Below are positions 42,001 through 48,000 of a stretch of 64,000 nt of DNA, one piece after another (positions within the stretch are counted from its first letter, which is position 1; every line of letters starts with the position of its first letter). The stretch is from Gemmatales bacterium (GTDB taxonomy: Bacteria > Planctomycetota > Planctomycetia > Gemmatales > HRBIN36), in assembly GCA_041640595.1 (NCBI GenBank), contig JBEPZY010000002.1, positions 178,984 through 242,983 of the forward strand, written 5' to 3'. The position numbers were made by a program.

Positions 42001-45000
42001 CGGGATTATTGCGCCGTTCCATCAATTGAGCGATGCGCAACAACTGCTCTTCGAGCTGAGCGTAGCGGGCTGCCACGACCGCCTGATTGGCGGCCAGTTC
42101 GTCGGTCAACTGATTGCTGGGCTGCTTCGGGGCAGGCTGGCCTTTCTCATCGGGATTGCCAGTTGGCTGAGCCAGTACTGCCAGGGTCAGGCTCCACGTC
42201 AGCACGGCAACCAGCGACACCAGCAGCGTGAGTTTGTGGCTTGTCAACATCGTTGCGATTCCTCCCAATCCGGTCTGCGAGCAAACCATTCCCCGTCGGT
42301 GCATGATTGTCTCCCTCCAGGACATTGTAGGCATACCTGGAACCTGGCGCTGGCGAAATTCCGAGCCGTTTCACGAAGCGGGACGGTTCTGGCAGCCTGG
42401 CCCGCTCGCGCTTGCCGCTTGACCCTCATCCTGCGGTCAAGGATACATCGTCTGGCGGGCGTTTGCCAGTGCAGGCCCCACTGATAAGACGAACCACTTG
42501 CTTTCGCGCAACAGGAATTTTCTCACCGGGGGTGCTTGGTTCGGTCGGCTAGGGATAAAACTTGCCGTTGGCATCGGCGAGCTGGCGGAGCAATTCGGTC
42601 GGCTGGAAGCGGACACCGAGGTCCTGATAGCGCTGGCATTTTTCGAGAATGCTTGCGAGGCCGATTTCGTCGGCCCATCGCAGGATGCCACCTCGCCAGG
42701 CTGGGAAACCCGTACCGAGAATCAGACCCATATCCACATCGCCGGCGTCGCGGACGATTTGTTCGCTCAGGACGCGGGTCGCTTCCAGCAACATGGGCAA
42801 GAACAACCGGTCGGTAATCTCCTCGTTGCTGAGCGAACGCTTACCGCGACGGCAGCGTTCGAGGATCGGCTCCAAAGCCGGGTCGTCGCTGCCGTGTTTG
42901 GGATCGCGGGAGTAATTGTAAAATCCGGCACCGCTCTTCTGACCGAGTCGGCCAGCCTGTACCAGTTCGGCGACGATGCGGCTTTCGACGAAGCGATCGG
43001 GAAACGCCTGCTGCAGGACCCGGCCCGCATACAGAGCGGTATCCAGCCCGACCACATCCTGCAGTGTCACCGGCCCCATCGGCATACCAAACTCCACTGC
43101 CGCCTGGTCAATCTGGCGCGGCGTGGCACCCTCCTCGAGCATCAGCATGGCCTCGTTCAGGTACGGAAACAGCAGGCGGTTCACCAGAAAGCCGGGACTG
43201 TCCCGCACCACGATCGGCGTTTTGCCGATGCGCTTGGCAAAGGCCACCAGCGTGGCGATGGTGACATCGTCGCTCGCCTCACCCCGCACCACTTCCACCA
43301 GGGGCATGCGTTCAGCCGGGTTGAAGAAATGCAGACCGGCAAACCGCTGCGGCTTCTGCAACGTCCGAGCCATCCGCGATATGGACAGCGTCGAGGTGTT
43401 GGAAACTATCAGGGTCTCCGCACCGACATGGGTTTCCAGTTCGCCCAAGAGCCGCGTTTTCAGGTCTTCGTTTTCGGTAACGGCCTCGATAACCAGATCA
43501 CGATCGGCCATAGCAGCCAGGGTCTGCGTGGTGCCGATCCGAGCCAGGGTGTCGGCAGCTTCTTGCGGTTTCATTCGCCCCAGCTGCACTCGTTCGAGCA
43601 GACCGCGTTCGATGCGTTGCAGGGCGTTCTGGAGAATTTCCGCGGAAACGTCCAGAAGTTGCACCAGGCAACCTCGCCGTGCCAGCACGCTGGCAATTCC
43701 GCATCCCATCACGCCGGCACCGAGCACTCCGACCCGCTCGATAGTTCGCGGCACCACTTGCGGATTGGCCACACCGGGGTCTTTCTGCAGACGCTGTTGC
43801 TGAAAGAAAACGGCAATGAGATTCCGCGCTTCCGAGCCGACCGCCAGACGTAAAAAAGCCTCCCGTTCGTGCTGCAGACCGTCGGCCAGAGGCAAATTCA
43901 CCGTCTTTTCCACCACCTCTAATGCCACCAGCGGTGCCTGGGGACGCCCGCGGGTTTTCTGCCAGACCTGACCGCGAGCCACGGCAAAGGTGTAGGCGTG
44001 TTGCTCTTCCGATAAGCCGACCGGTTGCTGTTTGCGGCGACGTATCTCCGGCCAATCGTTGAGCTGGCGAGAAAGCAAAAGCAGGCGTTGGGCTTCTTCC
44101 AGCAGCCGATCGCCAGGCACCGCATCGAAGGCCAGGCCGATTTCCACTGCCCGATTCGCGGTGATACTCTCGCCAGTGCATATCATCTCCAGGGCCAGCG
44201 ATGGGCCGATCAGTCGCGGCAAGCGTTGCGTCCCGCCCCAGCCCGGAATCAGACCGACCTTGACTTCCGGCAGTCCCAGTTCGGTGCGCGGATGCGTGCT
44301 GACCAGGCGATGGTCGAACGCCAGGGCGATTTCCAGTCCGCCGCCCAGACACGGCCCCTCGATAGCCGCCACCGTGGGACATGGGAGGCTTTCGATCCGC
44401 TGCAATAACGCTTGGCCACGCTCCAGCAGTTGTCGCACCAGTTCCGGATACCGCCAGGCCTGGGCCAGCTCCCGCAGGTCGGCCCCGGCCAGAAACATGC
44501 CCGGTTTGCCACTGGTCAAAATTACCCCCGCCAGAGGCGCCAGCCGGGCTATCTCGGCAACGGTTCGCTCCAGTTCGGCCAGCACTGCCTGGCTGACGAC
44601 GTTGACTTTGCTCTCCGGCTGATTGATGGTAATCAGGATTTCACCGCCGGGCAGTTGTTGCCAGGTTACGGCTTGCTCGGCCACGCCTTTCTCCTTCGCC
44701 TGACGCTATGGCAGTGCCGCTTCGCTCGATGGGATTCGCGTATTTTACAACTCTGGCATGGATTTTTGGGTCCGCTCTGGTCTTCTTGTGCCGGTGCGCA
44801 GATACGTCCCGAGGCTTCCTGATGATTGCACCCTAGTCCGCCTTGGTCTTCTTTGTGCCAGTGCGCAGATAGTCCTCATAGAGTTGCGCGAACCTCTCCA
44901 AGTCCGCTTTTGGTGTTCTTTGTGCCAGTGCGCAGATACATCACGAGCCCTCTTGAGGATTGCACCCTAGTCCGCCTTGGTCTTCTTGTGCCGTTGCGCA

Positions 45001-48000
45001 GATAGTTCTCGTAGAGTTGCGCGAACCTTTCCAGGTCCGCTTCTGGTGTTCTTTGTGTCGGTGCGCAGATACATCACGAGTCTTCTTGAGGATTGCACCC
45101 AGGCCCGCTTTGGTCTTCTTGTGCTGTTTTTGGTCTTCTTGGGCCGTTGCGCAGATAGTTCTCGTAGAGTTGCGCGAACCTTTCCAGGTCCGCTTCTGGT
45201 GTTCTTTGTGCCGGTGCGCAGATAGTTTCCATAGAGTTACGCGAACCTTTCCAAGCCCCCTTTGGTCTCTTTTCTGCCGTTGCGCAAATAGCTCTCAGAG
45301 TTGCGCGAACCTCTCCAAGCCCGCTTCTGGCGTTGTTTGTGTCGGTGCGCTCGAGGTGATTGGCACATTTTACGACCAAACCGGCCGCAGGCCAGGCAAC
45401 TCGCCGCAACACCTGCCGCCAGCCCGGCGGCTCCCCCACGCGCCGACGGCTAAAGCGGCGGTGCGAAGTAGCACCTACCAACACGCCGTGCCTGGCGCCG
45501 GTTCGCTAGTTCACCAGAACGGCGGTGGTGCTGGGCTGATTGTGACGGCGATGACGACTGGTTTTTCGACGGGGAGTCGCTAGTTCACCAGAACGCCGGT
45601 GGTGCTGGGCGGGGTGAAGCTCACGATCGCGTCGTTGCCGGCCATGTCGCGGATGAACGTGCCCGCTGGCCGCATAATCGGCGAGAGTATCTCTATCCCG
45701 TTCGTGTCGCGGTCGGAGGACTGAATCACATAGCGGAACCGCAGCGTTCTCGAGTCCGGTTGGCTGTAGAAAACCGCGTTGCGAATCACACTGCCGATAC
45801 GCAGCTGGATAAATGGTTTCGCGGTGCTGGTGGTACCGACGTTGACCGACTCACTGAATCGCACCACGATGTCCAGCGCCTGGCCGGTTACATAATGCCC
45901 GTTGGCCGGCGGTGTTACCAGCACAATCGTCGGGGCCACCGCATCCACTTTCACGTTCGGCGTGCTCGGATTGGTGAAGGTCGTGATAGCATCGTGCCCG
46001 GCCTGGTCGCGGATGAAAGTTCCCGCAGGCAGCAGAATCGGCGAGAGGATTTCGATCCCGTCGGTGTCCAGATCGCCGCTTTGCACTACGGAGCGGAAGC
46101 GCAGCGTGGTGGGGTCCGGTTGGATGTCGAAAAGCGCATCAGCAGTCCGCGAGCCAATCCGCACCTGCAGATGTGGCCGAAGGGTGCTGGTGGTGCCAAC
46201 GGTGACCGGCTCACTGAAGCGAATTAAGATTTCCAGTGCCCCGCCGGCACGATACCAGCCGTTGGCTGGCGGCGTAACCTGAACGATGCTCGGCGGTACA
46301 GTATCCACCAGAACGCCACTGGTATCCGGCGGTACAAAAACCAGGGCCGCAGCGTTGTCCGCGGTGTCCTTAATCGTTCCGCCGTTCAGGTCGAGCGGCG
46401 AAACTACGGTGATCCCATCTGTGTCCAGGTCGTCTGACTGCACAGTGTACCGGAAGAGCAAACTGCTCGAGCCGCTGCCGGACTGAAAGGTCGCGTAACG
46501 CGTCGCGTCGCCGATGGTCAGTTGCAAGCGCGGTGTCCCGAAAGTGGTGTCCACCACCACCGGACGGTCGAATACCACGGTGAAATCGAGGTTCTGGCCA
46601 AGCTTGTAAATGCCGCTTCCGGGGCCGCTGACGCTGTCAATCACCGGGCCCTGGTGATTGACCAGCACGACACTGAGCGGAGGCGTAAAGTCCAGCTGAG
46701 CATGGTTGCCTGCCCTGTCTCTGATGCTCCCCCCATTGAGGTCAATAGGCGTAACCAGGGTGATGCCATCCGAGTCCAGGTCTTCTAGTGCCACCGTATA
46801 ACGGAAGCGAAGAGTAGTTGTGCCACTGCCGGACTCATAGGTCGCATACCGGACCAACGGGGGAATGCTTTCGCCCACGTTGCTGCCGAACCTCAGCACC
46901 AGTCGCGGCGTGCCCGTAACCAACACTGGTTCGCTGAATTCCACCTCGAAATAAAGATCGTCCTCCACCGAGTAGTTGCCATTAGCCGGTGGCGAGACCC
47001 GGATAATTTCAGGCTCCAGCTCGTCGCTGGCCCAGAGTTCCATGCCATGCGTGCCATCGCTAGCAGCGAAAAACAGCGTGCCGTTGACGTTGGTGAGCCA
47101 CGTGGGACTGGAGCCAGCCGAACCCGGCCGGATATCTTGCACCAGGTAGGTGCTGTTCGCATCGCCATAACTGAACCAGAGTTCCCTGCCATACGTGCCA
47201 TCGTCGGCCAGGAAGAACAGCACACCGTTGACGTTGGTCAGCCCGGAGGGCTCAGAACTAGCAGAACCCGGCCGGATGTCCTTGACCATCACGGTGCCGC
47301 CGGACGTGCCATCACTCTTCCAGAGTTCGAGGCCATTCGTGCCATCGTTGGCAGCGAAAAACAGTGTGCCGTTGACGTTGGTGAGCTTGTTAGCGCCGGA
47401 CCCAAACGGACTCGGCCGGAAGGCCTTGACCATCACGGTGCCGCTGGATGTGCCATCGCTTTTCCAGAGTTCGATGTTGGAGGAGAAGGACCCAAGGCCA
47501 GTCCAGAAAACCAGTGTGCCGTTGACGTTGGTGAGATAGCTAGGATTGGAGCTAGCCAAGCCCGACCGGATGTCCCTGACCGGCACGGTGCCGGTGGACG
47601 TGCCGTCGCTTTTCCAGAGTTCGTAGCCGCTGGTGCCGTCGTTGGCCCGGAAAAACAACGTGCCGTTGACGTTGGCGAGCCACGCAGGGTTGGAATCAGC
47701 CGAGCCCGGTCCGATGTTCTTGACTAGCACGGTGCCAGTGGAAGTGCCATCGCTCTTCCAGAGTTCGTAGCCGCTGGTGCCGTCGTCGGCCCGGAAAAAC
47801 AGCGTGCCGTTGACGTTGGTGAGCGACACAGAACGCGAATCACCTGAGCCCGGCCAGATGTCCTTGACCAGCACGGTGCCAGCGGAAGTGCCATCACTCT
47901 TCCAGAGTTCTCTTCCCTTCGTGCCGTCGTCGGCGGTGAAAAACAGCGTGCCGTTGACGTTGGTGAGATAGCGAGGATGGGAGCGAGCCGAGCCCGGCCA

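Follow-up and report, generated by a model that had tools for sequence, protein, structure and literature searches.

Two repeat unit lengths in a Gemmatales genome as probable footprints of its two CRISPR spacer-integration modules outside their arrays

Results

A two-spacer array between two genes

The window analysed here is a stretch of 64,000 nucleotides from a Gemmatales bacterium, a hot-spring planctomycete whose genome comprises 4.45 Mb in 42 contigs. Coordinates are those of the window unless a contig (C1, C2 and so on) is named, and repeat features carry no strand. A repeat array, which we call the 44770 array, lies between two genes, 85 nt upstream of the start of the first.

42549..44684, minus strand: FadB/FadJ-like enoyl-CoA hydratase / 3-hydroxyacyl-CoA dehydrogenase
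44770..45353: array of nine repeats and eight spacers in units of 66-67 bp; the end, at about 45353, was read by hand
45580..48645, minus strand: 1021-aa protein with 144-bp (48-aa) coding repeats and a Big_5 domain

TRF run on the window reports 44769-45128 with a period of 133 (2.7 copies, 87% matches) and 44770-45124 with a period of 67 (5.3 copies). The repeat is GTCCGCYTYTGGTSTTCTTTGTGCCRGTGCGC, after which the internal copies carry AGATA, and the spacers are of two unrelated types, A (three times) and B (five times), arranged as A B A B A B B B. A single 20-nt duplication of part of the repeat lies at about 45104-45122. The genome-wide survey's note had divided the unit into about 29 + 37 with two alternating spacers; the two types stand, but internally the conserved block measures 36-37 nt and the spacer about 30 nt, not 30 + 36. 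Only the terminal copy, conserved for 32 nt, fits the geometry of the resident type I-B system, and the internal geometry matches that of a resident system only if the shared AGATA is counted with both spacers. The unit has no second occurrence elsewhere in the genome, a relative's orthologous gene (80% protein identity) has no tandem repeat next to it, and spacers A and B have no match among the viral contigs of the one collection scanned.

Are the 44770 array and the other alternating-spacer arrays decayed orphans of CRISPR systems that were lost or horizontally acquired? The internal geometry of about 36 + 30, unlike that of both resident systems, equals that of an array in a same-family genome (35-nt repeat, 30-31 nt spacers). 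Elsewhere in the genome, the unit at C4:238298 starts like the canonical 30-nt repeat, sharing its first 15 nt, and two degenerate canonical repeats occur in C3:328836; decayed canonical material is therefore present. Yet the 44770 array differs from a functional CRISPR array in that its eight units draw on only two spacer types in each of the two strains seen (in strain variant L155 these types run A B B A B B A B, and the terminal repeat ends in the same way), no cas gene adjoins it, and the Rfam CRISPR-DR families have no match anywhere in the window. Its repeat, compared by eye, is unlike that of the same-family relative, its terminal copy diverges after 32 nt, as for a duplicated ordinary site, and lost systems cannot supply the unrelated repeats of scores of other loci. 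We regard an orphan origin as unlikely. The 44770 array probably consists of two old spacers that would have been integrated on one duplicated site and later amplified.

Other units in the window

Further units in the window have the form R-S-R, an insert S between two copies of a sequence R, or are arrays of such units.

4385..5401: cluster of five neighbouring units, none related to another, in a single intergenic stretch (the next five lines)
4385-4482: offset 66, R of 32 nt
4500-4689: 74-bp unit in 2.5 copies, identical spacers
4747-4855: offset 72, R of 37 nt
4894-5078: three repeats, two different spacers
5223-5401: three repeats, two different spacers
14108-14214: R-S-R, offset 72, R of 35 nt; first part of 14108..14455
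14208-14455: 73-bp array, 3.5 units, 37-nt conserved block, spacers A B A
16880..16966: R-S-R, offset 66, exact match of 21 nt
19631..19775: 74-bp unit twice (2.0 copies, 90% matches)
45503..45610: R-S-R of the 74 class, 34-nt duplication TCGCTAGTTCACCAGAACGGCGGTGGTGCTGGGC (1 mismatch) with a 40-nt insert
48658..48751: R-S-R of the 66 class, 28-nt duplication with a 38-nt insert
50113..50599: 75-bp array, about 6.5 units; spacers of two types, each about 34 nt, follow one another as A B A B A B between conserved blocks of about 41 nt

The second R copy of the unit at 45503..45610 contains the stop and last codons of the minus-strand gene 45580-48645, and the unit at 48658..48751 sits in a segment paralogous to C2:42029-42327.

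Repeat periods in the whole genome

Non-coding tandem repeats had been said to favour two unit lengths, a preference that is borne out, exceeds chance and proves larger than claimed. TRF gave 686 rows, merged into 402 loci with the three canonical array stretches left out; binned by smallest period, 17 of the 402 fall at 65-67 and 48 at 71-77, none at 55-64 or 78-80, and further groups lie at 87-95 (n = 39), 126 (n = 11) and 144 (n = 7). A TRF-independent self-match scan (offsets 30-160, score at least 20, canonical arrays masked) yielded 416 loci, with 69 at offsets 65-69, 99 at 71-77 and 137 at 87-95. The remaining offsets mostly hold 0-4 loci apiece, the exceptions being 126 (n = 12) and 144 (n = 7), mainly coding repeats. 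When at least 19 of 24 matching positions sufficed, offsets 64-69 and 72-76 reached 204 and 182 loci, and other offsets 1.7-3.5 each.

Re-running the survey's filter (unit 30-200, at least 2.8 copies), with loci kept when less than 50% coding by a crude ORF model of our own, reproduced its 8 loci at 66-67 bp and returned 24 rather than 20 at 71-76 bp, in a total of 54 rather than 47. The two listings differ in single loci at 43, 47 and 70 and in nine at 88-93, which are the hairpin family set aside in the earlier one. Most loci at the two favoured lengths are 1.5-copy R-S-R units, unrelated in sequence, as had been stated for the arrays.

Resident modules and unit geometry

The genome holds two complete adaptation modules, with two Cas1, two Cas2, Cas4 and an RT. 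The first is Cas4-Cas1-Cas2 at the type I-B locus on C8, where Cas3, Cas5 and Cas7 are also found; the second is Cas2-RT-Cas1 by the 37-nt array on C1. The canonical 30-nt repeat is present in 317 + 27 copies with spacers of 35-40 nt (mode 36-37) and the 37-nt repeat in 247 copies with spacers of 33-40 nt (mode 37), in accordance with the canonical units of 30 + 36 (I-B) and 37 + 37 (RT-Cas1) reported before.

The off-array units repeat these measures, with crude repeat boundaries (+-2 nt). In the class of about 66, R is 30-31 nt long in 22 of 61 loci; in the class of about 74 it is exactly 37 nt in 12 of 79 and 35-40 nt in 40, and the modes of 30-31 and 37 correspond to the canonical 30 and 37. 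The mode of insert length is 35-38 nt in both classes (about 36 nt in the first, about 36-37 nt in the second), against canonical spacers of 33-40 nt. Mini-arrays, in which at least three copies of one repeat enclose at least two spacer types, make up 16 of 148 loci. In many units the R copies diverge at 5-6% of sites, and judged by this difference many appear to be old.

Origin of the inserts

We find that some inserts of the 30-nt class derive from a virus. One of 182 off-array spacers matches one of the 587 canonical spacers, at 54 bits compared with at most 28.2 bits in 20 shuffles. That canonical spacer is identical over 36/36 positions to viral contigs L144/L145, and the off-array spacer matches the same site at 33/36 with a 2-nt shift, so that the two protospacers overlap. 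The full viral contigs L146/L147 are matched by 46 of the 587 canonical spacers, all 46 of type I-B (type III spacers: 0 of 246), and also by 3 of the 182 off-array spacers, all of the 30-nt class; the insert at C1:321599 agrees with the viral contigs at 34/35. Direct repeats (about 20-30 nt, offsets 66-68) accompany three more virus-like inserts of 35-51 nt, one of which sits between cas4 and cas3. Among about 110 inserts of the 37-nt class there is no viral or canonical-spacer match, and a captured spacer or protospacer is identifiable in the 30-nt class only (3/182 inserts viral). What speaks for the 37-nt class is its geometry, its terminal bases and a single paralogue family.

Paralogous segments preserve the site without the insert, with a single R, for both classes. 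The unit at C10:64665 has a paralogue at C1:12266-12456, 92.7% identical over 191 nt, that is without exactly R+S, 65 nt, and three paralogues of C1:321599 are without exactly 67 nt. In the latter family one copy carries a 66-nt unit and two others carry a 73-nt unit; the C2 copy is empty at either site. The lengths missing at C10:64665, C1:321599, C1:321766 and C3:419213 are 65, 67, 66 and 73 nt. Relatives are indeed too distant to reveal empty sites, as had been noted, at 74-77% identity; the paralogues supply them instead.

A lineage-specific integrase or mobile element other than Cas1-Cas2, one that inserts fragments of about 36 nt and duplicates 30-37 nt of its target, might in principle give units whose density is likewise lineage-specific. 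However, the two lengths of the duplications are those of the two resident repeats, each insert differs from the others, and some come from the virus sampled by the I-B array, one from the very same protospacer. To our knowledge no other enzyme leaves such a footprint, and we give this alternative very little weight.

Target sites and relatives

The first base of R is G in 23/36 and 26/40 loci (p=1.5e-5 and 2.5e-6) and the second is T in 22/40, which agrees with the GT... ends of the canonical repeats. The outer flanks of the 66 class are G-rich, like the native ...CTGG|GT junction. Overall identity to the canonical repeats is barely above random, with means of 11.8 vs 11.3 of 30 positions and 14.6 vs 13.7 of 37. 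DNA that is less than 10% coding holds 47/59 and 52/70 units in a genome that is 81% coding by the crude ORF model. The scars lie mainly in non-coding DNA and appear to be neutral. There are no such units in the 213 kb examined of a same-genus genome with a related 37-nt CRISPR, or in 400 kb of a same-family genome. Strong integrase activity alone fails to account for their abundance in this lineage.

Growth of arrays and differences between strains

Copy-number fractions had been described as not clustering at one half. Among 44 non-coding TRF loci of 70-78 bp, 25 have fractions of.4-.6 where 30% are expected (p=2e-4), contrary to that description. Whole units also differ between strains. In contigs of runs X3 and X7 just 4 letters separate 4963 from 5042, which is one 74-nt unit (repeat + spacer 2) fewer than in the window. 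In a contig of run X6 a single letter stands between 19711 and 19786, so this strain is one unit shorter there, and in an X6 contig 14333 is followed, after 16 other letters, by 14422. The unit at 16880..16966 is spanned by long contigs of X2, X3, X6 and X7, three of them gap-free; that of X6 has one single-base insertion at 16792, outside the unit. Together with the half-unit clustering, whole-unit differences here and in the 44770 array support growth by unequal recombination, as had been proposed.

Could the units then be ordinary minisatellites, born of slippage or unequal crossing-over, whose period would be dictated by, for instance, seven turns of the double helix (about 73.5 bp) or a nucleoid-protein footprint? 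Whole-unit change between strains, seen at 4963-5042, at 19711-19786 and in the 44770 array, is what slippage would give, and conservation is even along the unit in many arrays, so that the seeding event is not visible, a point that the survey's note had raised against its own proposal and that holds. However, slippage cannot put an unrelated 36-nt sequence between copies of 30 or 37 nt, it cannot account for inserts with 33-34 of 35-36 positions identical to a virus, the two peaks are separate and each is tied to its own duplication length, and the same-genus 213 kb and same-family 400 kb have no such units. A minisatellite origin of the R-S-R units is largely refuted, and we consider it highly improbable for the class. 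Whole-unit change belongs to the later history of the arrays, not to their origin, each difference being a gain or a loss.

Discussion

The survey's note had proposed that the repeats were seeded by two Cas1-Cas2 modules. Duplication and insert lengths, viral inserts, paralogous empty sites and the 16 mini-arrays support this. We infer that the resident enzymes made the scars: with a probability of roughly 0.85, the two unit lengths are footprints of the two resident spacer-integration modules acting outside their arrays, some of them later amplified. Given the geometry, the viral inserts of the 30-nt class and the paralogous empty sites, off-target Cas1-Cas2 integration is well supported, and the class as a whole is very probably its product.

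Judging from the known mechanism of Cas1-Cas2, a scar would begin with two staggered attacks on an ordinary site, one canonical repeat length (30 or 37 nt) apart, with a prespacer of about 36 nt joined in at the attacked site. Gap repair would then duplicate the stretch between the nicks, giving R-S-R. Some units may have taken a second spacer to become R-S1-R-S2-R, and unequal recombination between repeat copies would amplify and reshuffle many, leaving n+0.5 units with identical or alternating spacers.

Three kinds of loci invite comparison. Bacterial intergenic minisatellites, or VNTR loci, such as the MIRU-VNTR of mycobacteria, are tandem non-coding units of some tens of bases. Whole units are gained and lost between strains there as here, but here an integrase ruler would set the unit length, arrays end on a half unit, and units pair duplicated host sequence with foreign sequence. 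With the canonical I-B (30-nt) and RT-Cas1 (37-nt) arrays of this genome the off-array loci share unit and spacer lengths and, for three inserts, a viral source. Unlike them, their repeats are ordinary local sequence, different at every locus, they mostly have one spacer, no leader and mostly no adjacent cas gene, and many of their spacers are repeated within one array.

Nivala, Shipman and Church reportedly described, in Nature Microbiology in 2018 (3:310), non-canonical Cas1-Cas2 integration that gives rise to 'neo-CRISPR' loci. According to a preprint, that work showed new arrays spawned by off-target integration in E. coli and 'circumstantial evidence' in two other species (10.1101/148544); a review mentions rarer off-target events detected in cells overproducing Cas1-Cas2 (PMC7054753). 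Judged from these accounts, the loci are alike in a spacer-sized insert, a target duplication of the resident repeat length, a chromosomal position off the array and the capacity to add more spacers. They differ in that the sites described here have hardly more in common with the native repeat than the terminal G/GT, their empty states are read from paralogues, some inserts are traced to a virus, and many units were secondarily amplified into minisatellites. Instead of type I-E, two modules would be at work, an RT-associated Cas1 and I-B with its Cas4. Well over a hundred scars, about 150 events by strict and up to about 350 by loose counting, seem to have accumulated here in a wild genome, with no engineered overexpression.

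Two unit lengths outside the canonical arrays

The host genome (4.45 Mb in 42 contigs, cited here as C1, C2 and so on) is contained in 20 metagenome runs, mostly from hot springs. Its adaptation genes comprise two for Cas1 and two for Cas2, and its modules and canonical arrays are as follows.

C8: module 1, Cas2-Cas1-Cas4-Cas3-Cas5-Cas7, followed by the cmr operon
C1: module 2, Cas2-RT-Cas1
Canonical arrays with the 30-nt (I-B) repeat: 317 + 27 repeats, spacer mode 36-37 nt
Canonical array with a 37-nt repeat: 247 repeats, spacer mode 37 nt

A 4.7-kb contig also carries a small true array (C20:1210-1581), with 6 repeats and, between them, 5 spacers that all differ. 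The repeat, again of 30 nt, adds a third variant (GTTTCAATACCACACTGGTTCAATTAAAAG) that matches the I-B repeat at 23/30 positions; the source could be a plasmid, another strain or contamination. Elsewhere, a 73-bp tandem unit at C4:238298-238560 shares its opening 15 nt with the start of the canonical 30-nt repeat, and at C3:328836-328932 a 37-nt spacer stands between two degenerate canonical 30-nt repeats (4-5 mismatches). Both are canonical material, decayed or hybrid, outside arrays.

Outside the canonical arrays, TRF reports 402 loci, with a smallest period of 65-67 in 17 of them, of 71-77 in 48, and of 55-64 or 78-80 in none. Under a filter similar to that of the genome-wide survey's note, 54 non-coding loci remain, 8 with units of 66-67 bp and 24 with units of 71-76 bp, which bears out the note's claim that repeats concentrate at two unit lengths. 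A TRF-independent scan for self-matches at all offsets from 30 to 160, canonical arrays masked, yields 416 loci. Offsets 65-69 account for 69 of them, 71-77 for 99 and 87-95 for 137; the remaining offsets mostly hold 0-4 loci each, the exceptions being 126 (12) and 144 (7), mainly coding repeats. The tandem arrays are thus, by an independent scan, the visible tip of a larger set. With a looser threshold (at least 19/24 matching), 204 loci fall at offsets 64-69 and 182 at 72-76, against 1.7-3.5 per offset in their neighbours.

The loci at 87-95 belong to a single REP-like hairpin family (GAGCGGCGGGCGTCAGCCCGCCGTGG) and are separate from the units considered here. Allowing up to 4 mismatches, the hairpin has 904 copies genome-wide (one example in the window is at about 5100-5190), often spaced 87-95 nt apart (137 loci) and typically appearing as 1.3 or 2.3 'copies'; none was found in 213 kb of a same-genus genome.

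At offsets 65-69 and 71-77 the loci are mainly structures of 1.3-1.6 copies in which a short direct repeat R surrounds an unrelated insert S. With ends refined, the length of R peaks at 30-31 nt at offsets near 66 (22/61 loci; the 30-nt class) and at 37 nt at offsets near 74 (12/79, with 35-40 nt in 40/79; the 37-nt class), whereas S peaks at 35-38 nt in both. R sequences are unrelated between loci and bear scant resemblance to the canonical repeats. Chaining of repeats gave 172 loci, reduced to 148 by excluding unchained seeds, a small contig that carries a true array, and 21 loci that are more than 90% coding, most of them coding repeats of 72 bp that resemble leucine-rich repeats. Two repeats are present in 111 of the 148, at least three repeats with at least two spacer types in 16, and at least three with a single type in 21. 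Simple units lie in DNA that is less than 10% coding in 47/59 and 52/70 cases, in a genome that is 81% coding by a crude ORF model. For the class as a whole these lengths support the reading that each of the two unit lengths is the ruler of one resident integrase.

R begins with G in 23/36 loci of the 30-nt class and 26/40 of the 37-nt class, its second base is T in 22/40, and at the far end, on the other strand, G leads in 18/36 and 19/40. Both canonical repeats start with GT on at least one strand; the I-B leader ends in CTGG directly before the repeat, and the outer flanks of the 30-nt class are G-rich like that leader end. Units are somewhat commoner near the hairpin family, 45/172 loci lying within 500 nt of a copy against 490/3000 random intergenic positions. 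Their density is uneven, with 17 units on C1 (1.27 Mb) against 46 on C2 (0.67 Mb). Five unrelated units stand back to back in a single 1.1-kb intergenic stretch at window 4385-5401, and similar clusters occur at C3:266510-266990 and C4:285509-286455; such clustering could reflect hot spots or merely tolerant DNA.

Viral origin of inserts

Are the inserts spacers? One of 182 off-array inserts, at C2:174386 (R of 32 nt, offset 68), matches one of the 587 canonical spacers at 30/31 positions, a score of 54 bits where 20 shuffles reach no more than 28.2 bits. The core common to both, scanned against viral contigs, found two related ones, to which the canonical I-B spacer is identical at 36/36 nt; the insert matches the same viral place with a shift of 2 nt, at 33/36. 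The full contigs, L146 (8.7 kb) and L147 (14.4 kb), come from IMG/VR and share 90% identity over 3.9 kb. A total of 46 canonical spacers match them, all I-B (46/341), and none of the 246 spacers of the type III array does. This is evidently a major virus of the host, heavily sampled, probably through primed adaptation.

Three off-array inserts match the full viral contigs, all of the 30-nt class, among them that at C1:321599 (34/35). When the viral contigs were searched back on the genome by blast, further virus-like pieces of 35-51 nt were found, including three with flanking direct repeats at offsets of 66-68.

C8:24738-24774: virus-like piece between cas4 and cas3
C2:175457-175494: virus-like piece
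C2:299255-299305: virus-like piece

The first of these is 37 nt long and 94.6% identical to the L146/L147 virus. The direct repeat on either side of it, at offset 66, is decayed and spans about 22-30 nt; the piece represents an off-target insertion within the cas operon. On these matches, the inserts are spacers in part of the 30-nt class. The roughly 110 inserts of the 37-nt class gave no viral or canonical-spacer match, nor did the cores of two recent ones match the viral contigs. Against their own genome, inserts (137 queries) are mostly without a second copy, the matches being chiefly paralogous segments or the locus's own array.

Empty sites and relatives

The note had held that relatives are too distant to reveal empty sites. 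This stands for orthologues: in the closest genomes flanking genes are only 74-77% identical and synteny is broken, which makes orthologous comparison unusable, and paralogues were therefore taken instead. Among these, empty sites were found. The locus C10:64665 has a paralogue on C1 (C1:12266-12456), 92.7% identical over 191 nt, that holds a single R and lacks exactly the 65 nt of R + S. The segment C1:321480-321920 has three paralogues; at the place where C1 reads R-S-R, 67 nt longer, each of them holds R once, and the S in question is the insert with the 34/35 viral match. Further along, the C1 copy contains a 66-nt unit, and two other copies of the segment carry a different 73-nt unit nearby, with a diverged R of about 38 nt and an S of about 35 nt. 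Both places are empty in the C2 copy; C2:80241-80446 counts among the empty paralogous sites. Together these two paralogue sets provide before-and-after pairs for both classes.

In 400 kb of a genome of the same family (with a small 35 + 31 array) the scan finds 4 loci, namely its own array and offsets 84, 84 and 129. For a same-genus genome, which has a related 37-nt repeat, the scan covered 218,561 nt and finds 7, six pieces of that genome's own CRISPR and a 45-bp repeat. Off-array units are thus absent from the former and from 213 kb of non-CRISPR sequence of the latter, where about 8 would be expected at the host's mean, very uneven density. Their abundance is accordingly specific to the host lineage.

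Growth into arrays

The note had stated that copy-number fractions do not cluster at one half. For periods of 70-78 the reverse is found: fractions of.4-.6 occur in 25/44 non-coding TRF loci (expected 30%, p=2e-4), 15 of them at.5, the pattern of an array that starts and ends on R. In the 15 loci of the 30-nt class the peak at.4 is not significant. Copies of R differ at 5-6% of sites on average and are identical in only 8/45 and 5/47 units; the record covers a long time.

Contigs of four metagenome runs were placed on window 1-20000. Those of runs X3 and X7 join 4963 to 5042, one 74-nt repeat-plus-spacer fewer in an array of three repeats and two spacers, and an X6 contig has one unit fewer at 19711-19786. 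All units of 4633-13920 are present, gapless, in run X2, which is about 0.2-0.5% divergent. The intergenic stretch 4110-5300 is unbridged by the listed long pieces of X3, X6 and X7, and the joints listed include no clean empty site of any 1.5-copy unit. Depth in these runs is 30-100x that of the flanks at window 13341-14007.

A conserved block with two alternating spacers is seen at window 14208-14455 and 50113-50599, at C8:39319-39870, and in the anchor array, the locus from which the note set out, which lies between two genes.

42549-44684, minus strand: FadB-like gene
45580-48645, minus strand: 1021-aa repeat protein with a Big_5 domain

In the latter protein a 144-bp (48-aa) coding repeat recurs about 8 times, and a Big_5 domain forms the C-terminal part; similar 126- and 144-bp coding repeats occur across the genome (11 and 7 TRF loci).

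TRF describes the anchor as 44769-45128 (period 133, 2.7 copies) and as 44770-45124 (period 67, 5.3 copies). Read by hand, it extends from 44770 to about 45353, with 9 repeat copies and 8 spacers. The spacers belong to two types unrelated to each other, arranged A B A B A B B B, and a 20-nt partial-repeat duplication lies at about 45104. Internal repeat copies have 36-37 nt in common, with spacers of about 30 nt, whereas the last copy matches the others over just 32 nt, up to GGTGCGC, before unique sequence begins. Given this end, about 32 nt of host sequence may have been duplicated, in which case both spacers start AGATA; canonical spacers have no conserved ends able to account for such a start. 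No second occurrence of the unit was found in the host genome, and no tandem repeat lies within 3 kb of the orthologous gene of a relative (80% protein identity).

The metagenome contig L154 carries the anchor exactly as it stands in the window. Another (L155) has the flanks, both spacer types and the terminal repeat end as in the window, but its spacers are arranged A B B A B B A B and show a higher-order period of 219 bp; this is reshuffling by unequal recombination, no spacer being gained. Along with the half-unit fractions and the whole-unit differences between strains, it agrees with the growth by unequal recombination that the note had proposed. The cores of spacers A and B, scanned against the viral contigs of one collection, found no match. 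Off-target integration is the best available reading of the anchor, graded lower than for the class because of the missing viral match in that collection, the ambiguous split of repeat and spacer, and change that is solely recombinational.

Significance

The boldest proposal of the note, that Cas1-Cas2 integrases seeded these loci by putting spacers into ordinary sites, is supported for the class as a whole by the viral inserts of the 30-nt class, the empty sites and the lengths of R and S. Off-target spacer integration is reported to have been shown in E. coli overproducing Cas1-Cas2 (PMC7054753), and natural cases have so far been only circumstantial (10.1101/148544). The host genome would preserve a natural record of such events, numbering well above a hundred. 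Among the matches listed in the literature on off-target Cas1 integration, no description of natural genome-wide scars was found. The events would come from two different adaptation modules in one genome, one of them RT-associated, and empty paralogous sites together with virus-derived inserts allow before-and-after comparisons. They would form a natural data set on the integrase, on its target choice (G/GT at the nick sites) and its ruler (30 vs 37 nt), and illustrate a route from single scar to multi-spacer mini-array to minisatellite. CRISPR finders and VNTR surveys may confuse such scars with their own classes.

Two loci adjoin genes of CRISPR function, as the note had reported.

C5:155311-156330: two arrays (73 x 3.5 and 75 x 6.7), adjoining a lone cas6 (C5:156787-157536)
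C8:39319-39870 (within the region C8:38879-39870): 74-bp array with alternating spacers, immediately upstream of the cmr operon

A far-reaching and, in our estimate, improbable extension is that off-target integration, more than mere noise, is a principal origin of the non-coding DNA and minisatellites in this lineage, and that at least one unit is now a transcribed, Cas6-processed array, for which these two loci would be candidates. If true, the birth of a new CRISPR array would have been caught in a wild genome.
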